From positions 43,591 through 107,590 of the forward strand of contig JBKHVI010000004.1 of assembly GCA_046570105.1 (NCBI GenBank): DNA of 64,000 nt, given 5' to 3'. Positions 52,900 through 60,379 of this stretch are shown here, one piece after another. The notes under the pieces are model-generated. The model was not told the DNA's origin, ran no database searches, and saw only the letters and a program-made list of their open reading frames with translations. Each line of letters opens with the position of its first letter. Within the stretch, counting starts at the first letter, position 1. Source of the DNA: Bacteriovoracia bacterium (GTDB taxonomy: Bacteria > Bdellovibrionota > Bacteriovoracia > Bacteriovoracales > Bacteriovoracaceae). The position numbers and the translations under genes were made by a program.

Positions 52900-53427
52900 A
52901 TGACATTACTATTAAAACAGCTCTTCGGATTTTTTAAACTTCTCCACTCTGAAACTGGTAACAACCAACTTGCTTGGGGTGTGGCCTTAGGTTTCGTGTT
53001 AGGAATGACGCCAGCACTTTCGTTACAAAGTTTGCTCGTGTTCTTGTGCCTTTTCTTTTTTCGCATTCAAATCGGCGCAGCACTACTCTCAGCATTCTTT
53101 TTTAAATTCATCGCCTTCTTACTCGATCCAGCTTTTGATCTTGTTGGTCAGTGGGCACTCGAGTTACCTGCTTTGCAAGGCTTCTACACAGAACTTTACA
53201 ACATGCCGATTATTCCCTTCACACGCTTTAACAACTCAATCGTGATGGGTGCAGGAATATTAGCCTTTTGTTTGGTTCCATTTGTCTTAGCAGGTTCAAA
53301 ATGGGCCATCATTAAATACCGCAAATCAGTCGTCGAAAAATTCCGTGATACCAAACTCTTTAAGCTCTGGACAAAAACAGCGCTCTACCAGTGGTATTAC
53401 AAGTACGACACCTTCTTCGGAAACTAA
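52900..53427 (+). CDS. TIGR03546-family membrane protein
   Basis: QLAWGVALGFVLGMTP and YNMPIIPFTRFNNSIVMG; paired with the next gene. Confidence 0.85.
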   Translation: MTLLLKQLFGFFKLLHSETGNNQLAWGVALGFVLGMTPALSLQSLLVFLCLFFFRIQIGAALLSAFFFKFIAFLLDPAFDLVGQWALELPALQGFYTELYNMPIIPFTRFNNSIVMGAGILAFCLVPFVLAGSKWAIIKYRKSVVEKFRDTKLFKLWTKTALYQWYYKYDTFFGN

Positions 53428-53436
53428 GGACTCGCT

Positions 53437-55320
53437 ATGAATGATAAAGTAACAAAAGCTCCGAAGAAAAAAGGCCCGATTCGTTTTGAGGCGATTATAC
53501 CAGTCGCTGTTATTTACGTCGCAGCCTATGCCTATTTCGCTTGGTTTTTTGACCAACATCTTAAACAAGGTATTGAGTATGTCGCGACACAAGCTAATGG
53601 CGCTGAAGTAAACGTCGCTGCTGTCCGTACTAGTTTTTTGCGCGGAACATTTGATCTCGATGGCCTAGAAGTCACGGACAAAGAGCAGCCCACTCGCAAT
53701 ATTCTCTCTTTGGATAATGTTCACTTTGGTTATATGTGGGACGCACTTCTTCGCATGAAATTTGTAGTAGATGAAGCGAGTATCAACCAAGTTCAAGTTT
53801 ACTCGCCTCGCAAAAAAGCTGGATTCGTCTTACCTCCAGAGCCTGCGAAGCCATCTAAGCTTGATCAAATGCAGAAAGAAGTTATCTCCCAGGTTAAACA
53901 AGAATACGCCCAAAACATGCTAGGTGATCTCATTTCCCTTTTAGAAGGCGCTGACCCAAAAGATCAATTAGAGAAAATCCGCGAAGAACTTGCCTCAGAA
54001 AAACGAGTCAAAGAAATGATTGAGGACGTCAAAACCAAACAAGAGACTTGGGACAAAGACATCAAGCGTTTGACTGATACATCAAAGATTAAAGAACTAG
54101 AAAGTGAGATTCAAACGCTTAAAGGCGAGAAGAATGTCCTTAAGCAAGTCCAAGGCATTAAAGAAGTTACTGATAAACTGAAAGACATTCAAAAACAGGC
54201 GAAGGAAGCTCAAAAAGCTGGCAAAAAACTTGAAACAGAAATTCGCGCGGTGGCTGCCTATCCAAAAGAAGTTGAAGCACTCGTTAAAAATGACATTGCC
54301 TCACTTAAGAATCGCTTTCAAATTCCACAACTCGATGTGAAAGACATGGCGATGGCACTCTTCTCGAAAGAACTTGGCGGCTACATTTCTCAAGCGCGCA
54401 AGTATCAAGCACTCGCCAAACAATATTTACCCGAGAAGAAAGAACGTGAAGAGGTTCTTCCACCACCACGCTCAGTTGGAAAGTCTTATGAATTTCCAAT
54501 CACAAAAAGTTATCCCCTCTTTTGGCTCAAAAAAGCTGCCATCAGTTCAAAAGGCACGGCCGATAGTTACTCTGGCAATGTTACAGGTGAACTCACTAAC
54601 GTCACAACAAGTCCTAAATGGGTCAAGAAGCCCACCGTGCTTAATTTGCAAGGCGACTTCCCTGGTTCACAAGTTTTTGGGGTTAAAGCTACTTTGACAG
54701 CTGACTTCACTCGCGAAACGGCTCGCCAAATGCTTGATATGCGAGTCAATGAATTCGCTATTCCACCGCGTGATTTTTCTAAAAGTGATAAATTAAAATT
54801 TGGTCTCACTAAGGCAAGTGGCTCAACTGTCATCACGGCCCAACTACAAGAAGACCAAGTGGAAATGAAATGGATCGGAACGATCACTAAACCTCAGTGG
54901 CTAGTAGAAGCTAAATCAAAACTGGCACAAGAACTTCTCACTGGCATCGTCGACGGAATTCCAGTTGTTTTTATCAACGGATCAGTTGGTGGAACATGGA
55001 AGAACCTAGATATGAAGATCAACTCTAATCTAGGTGATGAGCTTGCTAATGGAATGAAAGAGCAAGTTGGCAAAAAAATCCAAGAAGCTGAAGGAAAGCT
55101 TAAAGCGATGGTGGATGAGAAAATTAAACTTCCACAGCAACAACTCATGTCACAGTTGAACACCAATGGAGATCTGCTTTCTCAGATTAAAAACATTGAT
55201 AAGTTTTACAAGAATAACGAAGACAAGATTAAGTCCGAGATCGCTAAGCTCCAGAAAGGCGGCGGAGCCGGCTCACTTAAAGACAAGGGTAAGAAGCTGC
55301 TTAAAGGTTTTAGCCTCTAA
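53437..55320 (+). CDS. TIGR03545-family protein
   Basis: KKGPIRFEA, N-terminal TM, NGAEVNV, central coiled coil, YPLFWLKK, INSNL. Confidence 0.85.
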   Translation: MNDKVTKAPKKKGPIRFEAIIPVAVIYVAAYAYFAWFFDQHLKQGIEYVATQANGAEVNVAAVRTSFLRGTFDLDGLEVTDKEQPTRNILSLDNVHFGYMWDALLRMKFVVDEASINQVQVYSPRKKAGFVLPPEPAKPSKLDQMQKEVISQVKQEYAQNMLGDLISLLEGADPKDQLEKIREELASEKRVKEMIEDVKTKQETWDKDIKRLTDTSKIKELESEIQTLKGEKNVLKQVQGIKEVTDKLKDIQKQAKEAQKAGKKLETEIRAVAAYPKEVEALVKNDIASLKNRFQIPQLDVKDMAMALFSKELGGYISQARKYQALAKQYLPEKKEREEVLPPPRSVGKSYEFPITKSYPLFWLKKAAISSKGTADSYSGNVTGELTNVTTSPKWVKKPTVLNLQGDFPGSQVFGVKATLTADFTRETARQMLDMRVNEFAIPPRDFSKSDKLKFGLTKASGSTVITAQLQEDQVEMKWIGTITKPQWLVEAKSKLAQELLTGIVDGIPVVFINGSVGGTWKNLDMKINSNLGDELANGMKEQVGKKIQEAEGKLKAMVDEKIKLPQQQLMSQLNTNGDLLSQIKNIDKFYKNNEDKIKSEIAKLQKGGGAGSLKDKGKKLLKGFSL

Positions 55321-55328
55321 AATAGTTT

Positions 55329-55358
55329 GCCCGGGTCAGCTGATCCGGGCTTTATTTT
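55329..55358 (+). terminator. Rho-independent terminator
   Basis: GCCCGGGTC-AGCT-GATCCGGGC followed by TTTATTTT. Confidence 0.75.
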
Positions 55359-55461: not shown

Positions 55462-57309
55462 ATGTTGAGGTTTGTCATCATACTCATGGGGCTTATGAGT
55501 GCCGCTTTGGCGGGCGAACGTCCCGTTATGCGCGTCTCACCTGATGTCGCCCTCATGCTTGAGATGGATCTCATGATGCTCGAAGGCCTTGGGGGCCAAG
55601 TTCTCACTCATCCAGAACGCAAGACAGTCATCGAAGTCACATCATTTAGTCGAAAGGGTCTTCTGAACGAAAACCTATGCGACGATAGTGTGAGCAAAAC
55701 ATATGCACGCGTGAAGCACTGGTTTGGCAAATCAACGATTCAGATCAATGAGGAATTCATCCGCTTAGTGTATTCGCAACAAGGTATCTTTCCTTGTAAG
55801 CATGGATCATTTCGCCAATTTCTTACCGCAAGTTTATGGCATGAGCTAGGCCATGTCTGGGACAGGGAAAACGATTTCAGCACAGAAGGTCAGTACGCAG
55901 CCTTGATGGGTGGCGCTTCAGCCTTTAAATACAGTGAAAATCGTGCCGCTCCAAGTAGTCCAGATGCCTATGAACATAAAAACCTCAGAGAATCTTTTGC
56001 CGTCAATCTTGAATGGTTTCTTCTCGACTCCACCTTTGCTTGCAAGCGACCAGCGACTCAGGCCCTGCTGGAGAAAGCCTTGGGCTTTCGACCATTCAAC
56101 AATGAATGTGACTTAAACTGGAAACTCCTCACACAATCGGCTTACCCAGAAGATCACTACACACGAGTCTTTGATATTAATCCAGCACGTATCTATCAAG
56201 TTCATTATCTCTTTGCAGGCAAGGGCACCTCACTCATGAGTCGCTGGGGCCATGCCATGCTCAGACTTGTCGTCTGTGCCCCTCATCGTCAAACTCCAGG
56301 CCCTGAATGTATGCAGGACGTTTCTCATCATTTGGTCTTGAGTTACCGCGCATCAGTAGAGAATCCAGAAATCAGTCATTGGGATGGTTTAAGAGGGAAA
56401 TACCCTTCTCTCATGTTCATCTATCGCTTTCATGAAATTCTTCAGGAATACACGAAACAAGAATTACGTGAGCTATGGAGTATCCCTCTTCCGCTTGAGC
56501 GTGAGCAGATCGAGTTTTTCATGAAGGTGACACTTGAGCGTTTTTGGGGTTACCAAGCTAAGTACCTCTTTCTTAGCAACAACTGTGGCACAGAATCACT
56601 TCGTCACCTGACTGCTGTTGATGAAAAGTTATTTGATGAAATCGGAGACTTTACTCCTCTTCAACTATTTAGGGGTCTCTCTCGCCTCAGTGGCTTTGAA
56701 GAAATTAATAATCGTAAGGATGAACTTCAAACCAAGGGACTCTATTTCCCATCGCATCGACCTCTTTTAGAAGAAGCTGTGATGGCGCTCAATCAGTATG
56801 GGCTGACAAATAAAAAGAGCCTTAAAAAATTCCTAGAAACAAATCCAAAAGAAAGATTAACGGTTTACCAGAATTTCCTCTGGGAAGATCTAAGTATGCT
56901 TGATTCTCGGGCTGCACTTATGAGTCTGCAGTATCTCGAGCGTTATGCGAACTTGAACTACAATCTTAATCTTCTAAAAAATATAATGAAGAAGATTGAG
57001 AACAATGCTGAACTTAAAAAGTTAGTTGAGTCTGAAATTCAATCTTTCATGTCACTCTCACTGAGACCTTGGGAAATTGTTCGTGACAGCTATGGTGTTC
57101 CGTCGAGTGAAAGCTTCGAACAACAATTTGCAGAATACTTAGCTAAACGCCAAGTAGGAATGAATCAATCCAAGAGTGCGCTGGATGTATTGTTGCAACA
57201 TCCTCTTTTGAGACAAGAAGCAGACGACATTAAAAACCTAAAAGAAATTTCAGATATTATCACAATCGAACTTGCACGACCTATTTGGTATAGTCAGGAG
57301 GCCCTATGA
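55462..57309 (+). CDS. Secreted protein: N-terminal HExxH metallopeptidase-like domain + DUF4105 (Lnb_N-like) His/Cys domain
   Basis: Signal peptide; HELGH...SPDAYE..NLRESFAVNLEWF; SRWGHAMLR, GKYPS, EY...ELRELWS and YLFLSNNCGTE. Confidence 0.8.
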   Translation: MLRFVIILMGLMSAALAGERPVMRVSPDVALMLEMDLMMLEGLGGQVLTHPERKTVIEVTSFSRKGLLNENLCDDSVSKTYARVKHWFGKSTIQINEEFIRLVYSQQGIFPCKHGSFRQFLTASLWHELGHVWDRENDFSTEGQYAALMGGASAFKYSENRAAPSSPDAYEHKNLRESFAVNLEWFLLDSTFACKRPATQALLEKALGFRPFNNECDLNWKLLTQSAYPEDHYTRVFDINPARIYQVHYLFAGKGTSLMSRWGHAMLRLVVCAPHRQTPGPECMQDVSHHLVLSYRASVENPEISHWDGLRGKYPSLMFIYRFHEILQEYTKQELRELWSIPLPLEREQIEFFMKVTLERFWGYQAKYLFLSNNCGTESLRHLTAVDEKLFDEIGDFTPLQLFRGLSRLSGFEEINNRKDELQTKGLYFPSHRPLLEEAVMALNQYGLTNKKSLKKFLETNPKERLTVYQNFLWEDLSMLDSRAALMSLQYLERYANLNYNLNLLKNIMKKIENNAELKKLVESEIQSFMSLSLRPWEIVRDSYGVPSSESFEQQFAEYLAKRQVGMNQSKSALDVLLQHPLLRQEADDIKNLKEISDIITIELARPIWYSQEAL

Positions 57310-57743
57310 AAAAGATATTAGTTGTATGCTCACTACTTTTAGTGACATCCACTGTCTTTGCACAGAATCGTATCTCAGCTTATCTCATGTCACCTTTCGC
57401 ACTTGTCACTCGACTGGCCGAAACTGGCATTGTGGTGACATCGGCTGGAGTCCAAACACTCTTGGGCCCCTTTCTCACAACCAGAGCAACCTTAGAGGCT
57501 CGCGGAGTTGCAGGCCAAGAACAAATTAAAGATGAGCTTCTCGTCTTTGATAAAGACATGCGTTTAGGTCTTGTTGGTGACATCCAAGACATTCGCCAAC
57601 CAGGAATTCGTGAGCTCTTTGAAGAAATCTCACGTGATGAAGAAGAGTTGAAACGCATTCATAACTTCTATCCTGAAGGTTCACTCATTTTGAAACTATC
57701 GACCATTATTACTCTTAAGCTTTTTATTAAGGAGCACTTATGA
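57306..57743 (+). CDS. Secreted small protein, paralog 1 (DUF2388-like by context)
   Basis: Signal peptide VFA/Q; ATGA overlap; clearly paralogous to 57740-58141. Confidence 0.75.
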   Translation: MKKILVVCSLLLVTSTVFAQNRISAYLMSPFALVTRLAETGIVVTSAGVQTLLGPFLTTRATLEARGVAGQEQIKDELLVFDKDMRLGLVGDIQDIRQPGIRELFEEISRDEEELKRIHNFYPEGSLILKLSTIITLKLFIKEHL

Positions 57744-58141
57744 AATATCTTTTGTTGTCGCTTTTCATTGCCAGCAATGTTTTCGCTCAAGTTGATGGCT
57801 GGTACATCTCTATGGAGTTGTCGCTATCACCATTTATCATGACTCGTGACTCTACTCGTGCCGTCGGCGATCTCTCGGCTCGCCTATTTAATGGCATCCA
57901 GAACCGTGGTGTCGGTGGTGTTGAGCAGTTGCGTGATGATTTGTATGCCTACGATCAAGACTTACGGGCCGGACTTGTAAAAGACTTTGGCGACATTCGC
58001 CAAGCGGCTTTAAAGGAACTGGTATTGGAAGTAATTAACGATAAAGAAGTGCTAGCTGAGATCGAAGGAAAGTTCGACCAAGGCACAACGGCTGACAAAG
58101 TTATTGCAGCCATCGGCCTTGGTCTATTTCAAAAAAACTAG
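57740..58141 (+). CDS. Secreted small protein, paralog 2 (DUF2388-like by context)
   Basis: AAGGAG RBS; signal peptide VFA/Q; shares RGVxGxEQ and GLVxDxxDIRQ with paralog 1. Confidence 0.75.
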   Translation: MKYLLLSLFIASNVFAQVDGWYISMELSLSPFIMTRDSTRAVGDLSARLFNGIQNRGVGGVEQLRDDLYAYDQDLRAGLVKDFGDIRQAALKELVLEVINDKEVLAEIEGKFDQGTTADKVIAAIGLGLFQKN

Positions 58142-60321
58142 TATTTAACCAACTTACGAAGCGCATTCGTGACGTCTGAGACTTGGGGGAGGATAACCTC
58201 TTCCAAGTCAGGACAGTAAGCGACGTGCACATCTTGCGAAGCCACACGCAGAACCGGCGCATCTAGTAACTCAAAACACTCTTCATTCACGCGAGCACAA
58301 ATCTCACCGGCGTAGCCCGAAGTTTTATGTTCTTCATGAGCAACCAACAATCTGTTTGTTTTCGCCAATGATTTTTTGACCGTCTCCATATCAAACGGTG
58401 CAATTGTGCGTGCATCGATCACTTCAATCTCGAAACCTTCCTGAGCTAACTCTTTAGCAGCTTCGATAGATTTCTGGACCAAAGCTCCCCAGCAAACGAC
58501 TGTAGCGTGTTTGCCTTCGCGGGCGACACGGGCTTTACCAAACGGAATCATATACTCTTCGCCTGGATCAGCTGAGCGGTTGTAGCCTTGATAGTACAAA
58601 TGCTTGTGCTCCAAGAACATGACTGGGTCATCACAGCGAATAGCTGTGCGAAGAAGACCAATCGCATCTTGAGCATTAGAAGGGAATACGACGCGAATAC
58701 CTGGAACGTGACTGAAGAGGGATTCACCTGATTGTGAGTGGTACATAGCACCACCACGCAAATAACCACCAATTGGAACACGCACAACCATCGGACACTT
58801 GAAGTCACCACCAGAGCGATAGCGTGTCGTCGACATCTCGTTTTTGAGCTGCATATAAGCAGTCCAGATATAATCGAAGAATTGAATCTCTACGACGGGC
58901 TTAAGTCCACGCATCGCCATACCAATCGCACGGCCAATAATGTTGGCTTCAGCGAGTGGTGAGTTGAAGACTTGGCCAGGCTTGCCTGCTTTCTGAACAC
59001 CGTGAGTCACCTTAAATACGCCGCCCTTTCCTTTAAGATCCGGATTGTCGTATTTCTCAACTTCAGTGAAGTCAGCCACGTCTTCACCGAAAACCATCAT
59101 AAGAGGATTTTTCTTAATCTCACTCTTAAGAGTCATGTTGATCGCGGTCGCAAGAGGAATATCTTCTTTGCCAGTCATCTGAGCTTTGGTTTCAAACTCC
59201 GAGCTCGTGGGATCAACTTCGTGCGAATACAAGTGATCCATATAAGTTGATTTATCAGGCCAGGCAGTCGCCAGTGCTTGAGTCATGGCTTCACGAACTT
59301 CTTTATTCGCTTCATCCAACACTTCTGTGACTTCAGCTTGAGTCATCAAACCTGTATCAGTTAAGAAGCGTGGGTAAGCATTAAACACATCACGATAAGC
59401 TTCATCCGCAAGATCTTCTTTGGTGCGGTAGTAGCCGTGATCATCAGAAAGAGAGTGTGAATAAGGACGTGTGACTGTCGCATGCACCAGTGCAGGACCG
59501 TTACCTGCACGTAAGTATTTCTCTGCTTCGACCATGGTGTTGTAAGAGTCGATAGGACAGTTACCGTCACAATTGAAAATTTTAAGTCCAGGGAAATTCG
59601 CCAAAGCTACCGAGATCGAGGCACCCGGTGTCTGCACGCGAACAGGAACTGAAATGGCATAACCGTTGTCTTCTACCATGAACAAGACTGGCAGCTTGTT
59701 CACGCAAGCCGTAGTGAGCCCTTCCCAGAATTCACCTTGAGAAGTTGTGCCGTCACCAGTTGAAACATAAATGATCTCGCGGTCTTCATAGGCCGGAGAA
59801 TCTTTGAGTTTGTTTTTCTTAAGATGAAGACCCGCTTCCGCCAGACCGACAGCTTGTAAGAACTGTGTGCCAGTACAAGATGATTTAGAAACGATGTTCA
59901 ATCGCTTACAGCCCCAGTGTGCTGGCATCTGACGGCCATGAGAAGCCACATCACCGACGTTACCGTTGGCCTGACAAAGCATCTCGTACGGAGTCATACC
60001 AAGACCTAAGCAAAGCGCGCGGTCGCGGTAGTAACCGATAAACCAGTCATGAGCGGGCTTAAGCACACGGGCAGTTGCCGAAAGAATTCCTTCATGGCCC
60101 GCGCCTGAAATTTGGAAGAAGGCTTTGTTTTGCTTCTTCATCAGAATTTCGGTGTCGTCGGTTTTACGTGAAAGATAAATATTCTTCAAAAACCAGCGAA
60201 GATCGGTTTTTGCCAATTTATGTTTTTTGATGAGTTCAAGCTTCTTGTCGTACACAGCATTCCCCTTTTGGGCTTCGCTAGAGGTCTTCCCTGCTTTCGT
60301 TTCAGATGTGTTGGCGCGCAT
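58138..60321 (-). CDS. 2-oxoacid (branched-chain-type) dehydrogenase E1, alpha/beta fusion
   Basis: GHEG, YYRD, GRQMPAH, GDGTTSQGE...N TPP motif, HSLSDD; beta part FGEDV, EIQFFDY, YHSQ. Confidence 0.93.
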   Translation of the reverse strand: MRANTSETKAGKTSSEAQKGNAVYDKKLELIKKHKLAKTDLRWFLKNIYLSRKTDDTEILMKKQNKAFFQISGAGHEGILSATARVLKPAHDWFIGYYRDRALCLGLGMTPYEMLCQANGNVGDVASHGRQMPAHWGCKRLNIVSKSSCTGTQFLQAVGLAEAGLHLKKNKLKDSPAYEDREIIYVSTGDGTTSQGEFWEGLTTACVNKLPVLFMVEDNGYAISVPVRVQTPGASISVALANFPGLKIFNCDGNCPIDSYNTMVEAEKYLRAGNGPALVHATVTRPYSHSLSDDHGYYRTKEDLADEAYRDVFNAYPRFLTDTGLMTQAEVTEVLDEANKEVREAMTQALATAWPDKSTYMDHLYSHEVDPTSSEFETKAQMTGKEDIPLATAINMTLKSEIKKNPLMMVFGEDVADFTEVEKYDNPDLKGKGGVFKVTHGVQKAGKPGQVFNSPLAEANIIGRAIGMAMRGLKPVVEIQFFDYIWTAYMQLKNEMSTTRYRSGGDFKCPMVVRVPIGGYLRGGAMYHSQSGESLFSHVPGIRVVFPSNAQDAIGLLRTAIRCDDPVMFLEHKHLYYQGYNRSADPGEEYMIPFGKARVAREGKHATVVCWGALVQKSIEAAKELAQEGFEIEVIDARTIAPFDMETVKKSLAKTNRLLVAHEEHKTSGYAGEICARVNEECFELLDAPVLRVASQDVHVAYCPDLEEVILPQVSDVTNALRKLVKY

Positions 60322-60379
60322 GGTAAAATCCTTAGTTTCGGGATGCACCATCCTAATCAATCAGAGTCGAAAAATCTAT

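Follow-up and report, generated by a model that had tools for sequence, protein, structure and literature searches.

A conserved pairing in Bacteriovoracia of a secreted DUF7844-Lnb_N enzyme with small secreted proteins predicted to dock on it

A 64,000-nucleotide stretch of DNA from a Bacteriovoracia bacterium (GCA_046570105.1, contig JBKHVI010000004.1, positions 43,591-107,590 of the forward strand; hereafter the window, whose own coordinates are used throughout) carries three adjoining genes for a large enzyme and two small proteins, termed here sA and sB, that an earlier note had singled out as a candidate extracytoplasmic processing or acylation system. By computation we find that genes of the sA/sB family are linked to the gene for this enzyme, that enzymes and partners have co-diversified, that the catalytic residues of the enzyme are conserved, and that the small protein is predicted to dock on it. 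This conserved pairing probably marks an undescribed cell-envelope machine. We infer export, stable binding in the cell and chemistry on the N-terminal tail of the small protein; the explanation that we favour, at a rough probability of 0.45, is a stable cognate enzyme-partner complex in which that tail serves as a tethered substrate or pseudosubstrate.

The enzyme appears to contain two active catalytic centres. Its matches to the Pfam families Lnb_N (PF13387, formerly DUF4105; 76 bits, 3.5e-21, residues 240-404; cut-off 22.2) and DUF7844 (PF25226; 67.7 bits in two N-terminal stretches; cut-off 27) both exceed the gathering scores, whereas a match to Peptidase_M91 falls below its own (E 0.054); the Pfam scan found no peptidase family above cut-off for the protein, and no NCBIfam model matched it in the corresponding scan. 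The earlier note had described a zinc-type HELGH motif with a downstream glutamate and a DUF4105 His/Cys pair, and all of these lie where it placed them: E177, N182 and E184 fall within NLRESFAVNLE, H264 within WGHAMLR and C375 within SNNCGTE. Its expectation that these residues would prove conserved is borne out in an alignment of 48 homologues, where H127 is kept in 45, E128, H131, E177 and E184 in 46 each, and N182 in 45-47; at the zincin motif, the exceptions are two truncated proteins that lack the region and one that reads NELAH. G263, H264, N374 and C375 are kept in all 48 homologues. Because the catalytic residues are near-invariant, both centres look functional. The gluzincin signature, HExxH plus a downstream glutamate ligand, is likewise conserved, and the N-terminal domain is a candidate gluzincin-type (M34/M90-like) domain that may bind zinc and act as a peptidase. 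D286 is a candidate third residue of the Lnb_N catalytic triad. Four further cysteines (C194, C216, C272 and C283) are retained in 47-48 of the 48 proteins, a conservation that fits an oxidising compartment.

An AlphaFold model of the enzyme, built from an alignment of 44 homologues (predicted local distance difference test score, pLDDT, 87; predicted template modelling score, pTM, 0.88), divides into a zincin-like part (residues about 15-215), a permuted NlpC/P60 part and a set of C-terminal helices. Among solved structures compared with VIA, the zincin part most resembles the catalytic domain of anthrax lethal factor (Z 7.7), the Bacteroides zinc peptidase BACCAC_01431 (Z 6.8) and the Pro-Pro endopeptidase PPEP-2 (Z 6.6), and its best Foldseek match is PPEP-1 (E 0.025, template modelling score 0.55 on the target). 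The Lnb_N part (residues 242-434) matches TseH (6v98, Z 8.3), 3kw0 (Z 7.7) and YiiX (2if6, Z 7.5). These Z values for the two catalytic parts are middling, in a range that the structure-comparison tool rates as common, and they carry weight because the fold matches agree with the motifs. A sequence profile of the enzyme run against the PDB also retrieved MtfA (E 2.8e-4) over positions 125-223, which span HExxH...E. The C-terminal helices gave only generic helical-bundle matches in VIA (Z about 6-7), and there is neither a membrane segment after the signal peptide nor a membrane domain in the model. Homologues form 1116 clusters among 8000 candidates scored, and PF13387 and PF25226 occur together in 119 of the 120 best listed; a tblastn search of 72,556 plasmids with the enzyme returned no match.

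The two small proteins are paralogues, as the earlier note had stated (36% identity over 141 columns, E 4e-20). Their layout, for which the note had proposed a variable Ser/Thr-rich stretch followed by a conserved core, proves general across 36 aligned family members: in sA numbering, mean pairwise identity is 22% over residues 21-64, the tail, where 25% of positions are gaps, and 47% over residues 65-110, the core, which has none. Family tails follow the signal, are rich in Ser, Thr and Ala, run to 13-46 residues, and usually carry an SPF together with a second xPF about 11 residues N-terminal of the core, which itself begins with the consensus RGVAGxEQ(L/I)(K/R)DEL and includes a near-invariant E72 and an invariant D76. 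The sA model (pLDDT 80.7) is a helical bundle with helices at residues 54-65, 67-86, 99-109, 112-121 and 127-144. It has no fold match (best VIA Z 4.8; nothing in Foldseek at E up to 0.001), and a profile of the sequence against the PDB gave nothing below E 0.07. A TraO identity suggested for sA by the ESM Atlas (score 0.91) was set aside as chance, on 122-126 shared features and a template modelling score of up to 0.35. Neither sA nor sB matches any Pfam family at E up to 10 or any NCBIfam model.

The family is rare. An exhaustive profile search of 1.84 billion proteins recovered 50 representatives at E up to 0.001, 35 of them at E up to 1e-10; early searches with sA alone had limited sensitivity, finding 5 proteins by word index and matches in 3 of 301 genomes of the phylum, and profiles were used thereafter. 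The same core also forms the C-terminal 70-80 residues of lipoprotein-like proteins of 870-890 residues (P0050, P0038 and P0043), whose genes lie apart from the enzyme gene. One of them, P0050, has a lipobox-like start; in genome G282 the gene for such a protein (L011 1486-3132, minus strand) adjoins prfB-like genes and not an enzyme gene.

The co-occurrence of small genes and enzyme that the earlier note had proposed to survey is nearly complete. A profile from a 12-sequence family alignment, run against the GTDB species genomes, located family members at 18 loci, all of them from Bacteriovoracia, and an orthologue of the enzyme is adjacent to the small gene in 17 of them; the remaining locus, L023, holds an additional copy in a metagenome-assembled genome that also has a full locus. 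Most loci have one small gene, L013 has two, and L017 and L027 have three, and the small gene may lie either 5' or 3' of the enzyme, the order varying among loci. The genes that flank the trio in the window recur only at the same-genus locus L027, whereas the other loci of this enzyme clade (clade A) share a different context, so that the enzyme/small-gene pair is the sole overlap between the window and clade-A loci from outside its genus. Since the flanking contexts differ and the pair alone is held in common, the two genes appear to have moved as a unit.

Some family members stand apart from the enzyme. The orphan small gene of L023 (1685-4237) lies, in place of a DUF7844 enzyme, near the gene for a secreted protein whose Gly-x-Ser-x-Gly motif resembles that of esterases, and a DUF2388-like gene elsewhere (21.7 bits; L080 292-1639) likewise lies near a secreted Gly-x-Ser-x-Gly protein instead of such an enzyme. 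Genome G335, of the same genus as the window, has two orphan members with longer, membrane-like tails (L071 781-2379; L070 1712-2182), one of which is convergent with the gene for a 353-residue secreted protein that contains HEMQH and has a sub-threshold Zn_peptidase_2 match (E 0.003).

Structure prediction places the core of the small protein on the enzyme. Complexes of mature enzyme and mature sA scored 0.87, 0.88 and 0.85 for ipSAE (interaction prediction score from aligned errors), whereas the highest of three controls reached 0.01, with a partner pLDDT of at least 68 and a contact agreement of at least 53% across the runs. The confident interface comprises residues 65-110 and 129-141 of sA and residues 226-235, 273-288, 322-332, 424-439, 480-494 and 600-612 of the enzyme. 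In all, about 38 residues of the enzyme take part and 202 contacts are made; one face of Lnb_N, together with the C-terminal helices, makes up the predicted docking surface. In the model, this site lies beside the active site and not on it. The contacts of lowest error join R494 and K332 of the enzyme to E72 and D76 of the partner. Both of these enzyme residues belong to a set of interface positions that are invariant in 17 of 17 clade-A sequences (S226, E230, D231, A273, D286, S288, E325, Q328, K332 and R494). Paralogous enzymes retain the clade-A consensus at 14% of interface positions versus 31% elsewhere, and this comparison of sequences supports the interface independently of the prediction. 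The prediction and the alignments thus lend good support to a cognate complex that docks by way of the helical core, which has co-diverged with the surface of the enzyme, in line with the note's proposal that the core is a recognition element; the contacted residues are invariant in clade A alone. Fold searches with the sA model and the sequence profile against the PDB found no similar solved complex.

Neighbour type follows enzyme clade among the paralogous enzymes. At 25 of 30 loci that encode a paralogous DUF7844-Lnb_N enzyme, an adjacent open reading frame (ORF) carries a signal peptide by a rule that is crude, and the 5 loci without a secreted neighbour are at the end of a contig or on a short one. 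The neighbours, of 101-349 residues, make up at least six types, none of which has a family match above cut-off in Pfam and NCBIfam scans. On a quick IQ-TREE maximum-likelihood tree of 44 enzymes, in which A' is sister to clade A and B branches next, partner type requires 8 label changes (minimum 7) compared with 25.1 for shuffled labels; the clade-A label is not independent, because that clade was collected via the small gene, and the other labels are. When signals are removed, partners of types A (the sA/sB family) and B align with 93.6% probability (E 2e-7) over the SPF...PF tail only, with 0.1% for a reversed control, and their cores do not align (0.8%). Because the two types can be aligned over the tail alone, the tail would hold a shared functional element, and the core would be the clade-specific part.

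The link to DUF2388 that the earlier note had raised holds only indirectly, through the partners of these paralogues, and not for the window's own proteins. None of the 36 aligned members of the sA/sB family matches DUF2388 (PF09498)/TIGR02448, and sA and sB give no such match at E up to 10, whereas type-B partners have sub-threshold but near full-length matches to DUF2388 (1 of 4 and 4 of 33) and to TIGR02448 (3 of 20). When 151 genomes of the bacterial family were searched, PF09498 was matched best (23.7 bits, cut-off 25) by a 115-residue secreted protein encoded divergently from a DUF7844 enzyme; in 14 control genomes there was no DUF2388 match above cut-off. Type-B genes are divergently transcribed from their enzymes. 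Among the remaining types, type C consists of repetitive secreted proteins of 299-345 residues (L060 130-1029; L066 862-1899), and type D and one other are 132-137 residues long, beginning with a stretch rich in His/Arg/Cys or in His/Gly and ending in an acidic helical part (L061 80-487; L079 12-410).

Within the genome of the window itself, all 5 Lnb_N proteins adjoin a small secreted protein, which is a DUF3015 protein for 4 of them. These four enzymes, of 561-639 residues (L001 472-2977, L002 646-2827, L003 534-2973 and L004 701-2973; genome G000, contigs C32, C45 and C22), include one that was scanned and has a DUF7843-Lnb_N-DUF7840 architecture, the other three being of similar length; three of the four end in an aromatic residue.

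We propose that the three genes form a self-contained extracytoplasmic enzyme-partner module. Sec would export the large protein, with its MtfA/lethal-factor-type zinc peptidase site (HExxH plus Glu) and its Lnb-type Cys/His acyl-enzyme site, and each small protein, once exported, would form a stable complex with the enzyme by means of its conserved helical core, packed on the junction of Lnb_N and the C-terminal helices. That surface has co-diverged with the partner, and docking on it would tether the flexible Ser/Thr-rich xPF tail next to the catalytic domains. There the tail may be the element acted on, a substrate that is clipped and/or acylated; alternatively, it may act as a pseudosubstrate and keep the enzyme gated for as long as the tail stays unclipped. 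We favour these roles for the tail because it is shared across partner types that are otherwise unalignable, because its xPF is kept at a fixed distance from the core, and because, once the core has docked, it stays free next to the two conserved active sites. The presence of the core on the 870-890-residue proteins fits a portable recognition module. The earlier note had likened the system to a secreted module for ribosomally synthesized and post-translationally modified peptides (RiPPs): the predicted docking of the core and the variability of the tail agree with this idea, but the tail keeps its xPF and is not free-form as RiPP cores are, and Pfam yielded no RiPP family for the enzyme or the small proteins.

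Several observations weigh against this explanation. The type-A loci were picked via the small gene, and the reverse frequency was measured on paralogues only, with the crude signal-peptide rule; of 151 genomes of the bacterial family, profile searches detected the window's small family in 7, with only 27 candidates scored per genome, and DUF7844 in 44. The mark that the predicted complex passed was calibrated on 157 solved complexes, of which 116 attain it, and on 215 mismatched pairs, of which 2 do; this calibration holds only roughly here because the alignments given to the predictor were self-made and unpaired. H127, E128, H131, H264 and C375 all lie outside the confident contacts, and the complex model neither places the sA tail (residues 21-64) nor puts it near either active site. 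Some family tails are very short, at 13-23 residues. A large, helix-packed interface looks more like that of a stable subunit than of a transient substrate, and together with translational coupling it fits a permanent subunit or an inhibitor at least as well. Partners also diverge much faster than enzymes, as is typical of immunity proteins.

It is possible, if less probable than a tethered substrate or pseudosubstrate, that the small proteins serve in self-protection, as periplasmic immunity proteins or inhibitors that hold a secreted attack or remodelling enzyme, directed at prey lipids, lipoproteins or proteins, inactive in the producer until export. The earlier note had offered inhibitors or immunity proteins as its alternative, and we consider that alternative as likely as its idea of a substrate. 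A self-protection protein for endopeptidases is known from Bdellovibrio. The Bacteriovoracaceae are themselves a predatory lineage, in which DUF7844 often occurs in several copies (up to 4 matches per genome), and the pattern of a very divergent partner family for each enzyme clade, with tandem and orphan small-gene copies, translational coupling and a predicted stable complex, is one that immunity genes would produce. The nearest structural relative, TseH, is a type VI secretion system (T6SS) effector, and the accessible text on the sister clade Tox-Act1 describes toxins that are often linked to antibacterial secretion systems (PMC12994826). Yet the predicted interface leaves both active sites uncovered, the divergent transcription of type-B partners would be unusual for immunity genes, and the window ORFs between 50000 and 64000 include, beside the module, no gene for a secretion system or a polymorphic toxin. 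The occurrence of the core at the C-terminus of large lipoprotein-like proteins, and a conserved Ser/Thr-rich xPF tail that has no obvious inhibitor role, also speak for something other than self-protection.

We think it unlikely that the partner is instead an accessory subunit for membrane or lipid access, whose hydrophobic tail anchors the complex or hands over lipid in the manner of an activator protein. The enzyme has neither the five-transmembrane domain of Lnb nor the barrel of the outer-membrane paralogues, partners keep a constant design of signal, small-residue-rich hydrophobic stretch and helical docking domain, and the docking site includes the long C-terminal helices of the enzyme. 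The docking core is found on lipoprotein-like proteins with a lipobox as well (P0050). The 19-residue hydropathy maximum of the tail stretch does reach 1.7-2.4 in several members (2.41 in P0044, 1.78-1.95 in type F and 1.91 in one type-B protein), but after the signal it is only weakly hydrophobic in sA (1.34) and not so in sB (0.78), with 0.92 in the G034 orthologue. Tails of 13-23 residues, the lack of any lipid-binding fold for the sA model (best Z 4.8) and a Gp-FAR-1 match that is weak, below cut-off and confined to 2 of 33 type-B proteins likewise argue against this role. Highly improbable, finally, is a housekeeping Lnb-type lipoprotein N-acyltransferase beside unrelated small genes. The Lnb_N domain with its His/Cys pair would suit such an enzyme, and a Bdellovibrio homologue is automatically named 'lipoprotein N-acyltransferase'. 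However, the genome has a canonical Lnt (TIGR00546, 220.4 bits, cut-off 132.9), the enzyme model has no membrane domain, and in the searches made neither enzyme nor small genes were found in G178, a 99% complete genome of the same genus, which together argue that the enzyme is not a housekeeping Lnb; nor does an NCBIfam model match it, and the linkage and predicted binding speak against unrelated neighbours.

A bolder form of the substrate idea, which we regard as improbable, is a lipobox-independent system for protein lipidation or sorting, with the helical core as a portable tag that recruits the enzyme. The zincin head would cut the tethered tail at the conserved xPF site, and the Lnb-type Cys/His head would then take an acyl chain from a phospholipid and attach it to the N-terminus so formed or to a Ser/Thr. 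If true, the products would be acylated peptides of a new class, secreted or in the envelope, and other Lnb_N enzymes would treat their DUF3015 and DUF2388 partners in the same way.

Comparison with known systems places the module among relatives that each share a part of it. Lnb of Bacteroides, in the accessible text of its description, has a conserved His and an essential-type Cys in a permuted NlpC/P60 fold whose best structural match is TseH (bioRxiv 10.1101/2024.05.31.596883); the window enzyme shares the catalytic domain family, the fold and the His/Cys pair, and both are extracytoplasmic. In place of the five-helix C-terminal membrane domain of Lnb, however, the window enzyme has a soluble helical tail (440-615), and it adds an N-terminal zincin domain and a dedicated small partner. 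Lnb stands in for a missing Lnt, which is not so here, Lnt being present in the genome, and the window enzyme lacks an NCBIfam match. In LnsA/LnsB of Staphylococcus aureus, as far as the same source's accessible text goes, lipoprotein N-acylation needs an NlpC/P60-superfamily protein and a second protein (bioRxiv 10.1101/2024.05.31.596883), a likeness drawn by description; these are two membrane-associated Gram-positive proteins and not a fused soluble one. TseH and Tox-Act1, T6SS effectors with immunity proteins, have the same fold and His/Cys chemistry as the enzyme, and permuted NlpC/P60 relatives are also reported for DUF4105/Tox-Act1 clades in the accessible part of that account (PMC12994826). 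As in the window, genes for small cognate proteins follow those of the effectors, but delivery is by T6SS, whereas the window enzyme has what reads as its own Sec signal. It is also fused to a zincin domain, some partner types of DUF7844 enzymes are divergently transcribed, and the predicted partner site is beside the active site instead of on it.

With MtfA (M90), anthrax lethal factor and the Pro-Pro endopeptidases (M34), all gluzincins, the enzyme shares HExxH and a downstream Glu; its zincin-like domain is fused to an acyl-enzyme domain and falls in no Pfam peptidase family above cut-off. MtfA is an aminopeptidase, and LnsB is protease-like. DUF2388/TIGR02448 proteins resemble sA and sB in their small size, signal peptide and tandem copies, as described for Pseudomonas, and the DUF2388-like type-B partners also lie next to an Lnb_N-family enzyme; the window family nonetheless has no match, and its link to type B runs through the tail and not the helical core. 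The DUF3015 and DUF7843-Lnb_N-DUF7840 outer-membrane modules, of which the genome has four pairs, likewise join an Lnb_N enzyme to a small secreted neighbour, but their enzymes have other flanking domains and no zincin, and their Cys-containing partners belong to an unrelated family.

The layout of the locus (Table 1) agrees with the earlier description of three co-oriented genes joined by ATGA, the ORFs and overlaps at 55462-58141 being as it gave them. Both junctions, enzyme/sA and sA/sB, are ATGA stop/start overlaps, with Shine-Dalgarno-like AGGAGG and AAGGAG, respectively, a few bases 5'. The terminator-like hairpin forms the 5' limit of the unit, and at its 3' end the sB gene abuts a convergent gene; the overlaps, the hairpin and the convergent neighbour together argue for a compact three-gene unit, which is probably co-transcribed. 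The three are genuine conserved genes rather than chance ORFs. Signal peptides on all three products, also claimed before, are apparent by eye as K/R-hydrophobic-AxA starts (AALA/GE in the enzyme, VFA/QN in sA and VFA/QV in sB, the slash marking the cleavage point), and all three would be exported by Sec.

Table 1. Features of the enzyme-partner locus, in window coordinates; a slash marks a putative signal cleavage point.
Feature	Coordinates	Strand	Description
Terminator-like hairpin	55329..55350	+	9-pair stem then T run; 3' of upstream TIGR03545 gene
Enzyme gene	55462..57309	+	ORF, 615 residues; signal, DUF7844 zincin-like, Lnb_N permuted NlpC/P60, C-terminal helical domain
Enzyme signal peptide	55462..55512	+	residues 1-17, MLRFVIILMGLMSAALA/GE, by-eye reading
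Zincin-like domain (DUF7844)	55519..56106	+	residues about 20-215; HELGH 127-131 (nt 55840-55854), downstream E177/N182/E184
Lnb_N (ex-DUF4105) permuted NlpC/P60 domain	56179..56673	+	residues 240-404; H264 (nt 56251-56253), N374-C375 (C375 nt 56584-56586)
C-terminal helical domain	56779..57306	+	residues about 440-615; long helices 479-512, 549-578, 581-614
Small partner sA gene	57306..57743	+	ORF, 145 residues
sA parts			signal peptide 1-19; Ser/Thr-rich tail 20-64 (SPF, GPF); helical core 65-145 starting RGVAGQEQIKDEL
Small partner sB gene	57740..58141	+	ORF, 133 residues; paralogue of sA
sB parts			signal peptide 1-16; tail 17-54, shorter, more polar; core from residue 55 (NRGVGGVEQLRDDL)

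The convergent ORF (58138-60360, minus strand, 740 residues) has a 4-base overlap with the sB stop codon and by eye resembles a fused alpha/beta 2-oxoacid dehydrogenase E1 component. Directly upstream of the trio (52900-55320) is a TIGR03546 (DUF2062) and TIGR03545 gene pair; a functional link to this pair was rejected, since it is common only to the same-genus locus L027 and not to other clade-A loci. A same-genus relative has a third small gene, of 129 residues, 5' of its enzyme (L069 4281-4670), where the window has a 141-base spacer and the terminator-like hairpin.

The domain architecture of the enzyme is catalogued but unstudied, and the small-protein family is new to Pfam and NCBIfam. 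The full-text literature, in a search that did not extend to bioRxiv supplements, held no paper on DUF7844 or on the enzyme/partner pairing, and DUF2388 occurs there in table entries only; within the reach of these searches, neither the enzyme-partner rule nor the docking mode predicted here has been described. To our knowledge, the one job proven so far for Lnb_N is to add the third acyl chain to Bacteroides lipoproteins. In the window the domain belongs to a soluble secreted protein, where it is joined to a conserved zinc-peptidase-like domain, and the protein goes together with a small secreted partner for which binding is predicted. Given the secreted neighbours of all Lnb_N proteins of the genome and of most paralogue loci, the pattern reaches beyond this locus and points to a general, undescribed rule: an Lnb_N enzyme that has no membrane domain would act together with a small secreted protein of its own. 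Should the partners be substrates, they would reveal a new extracytoplasmic route of protein lipidation; should they be inhibitors, they would make up a new set of self-protection pairs, for enzymes with which predatory bacteria attack lipids or proteins. In both cases DUF7844, the DUF2388-like proteins and the new small family, all three of unknown function, are made directly testable.

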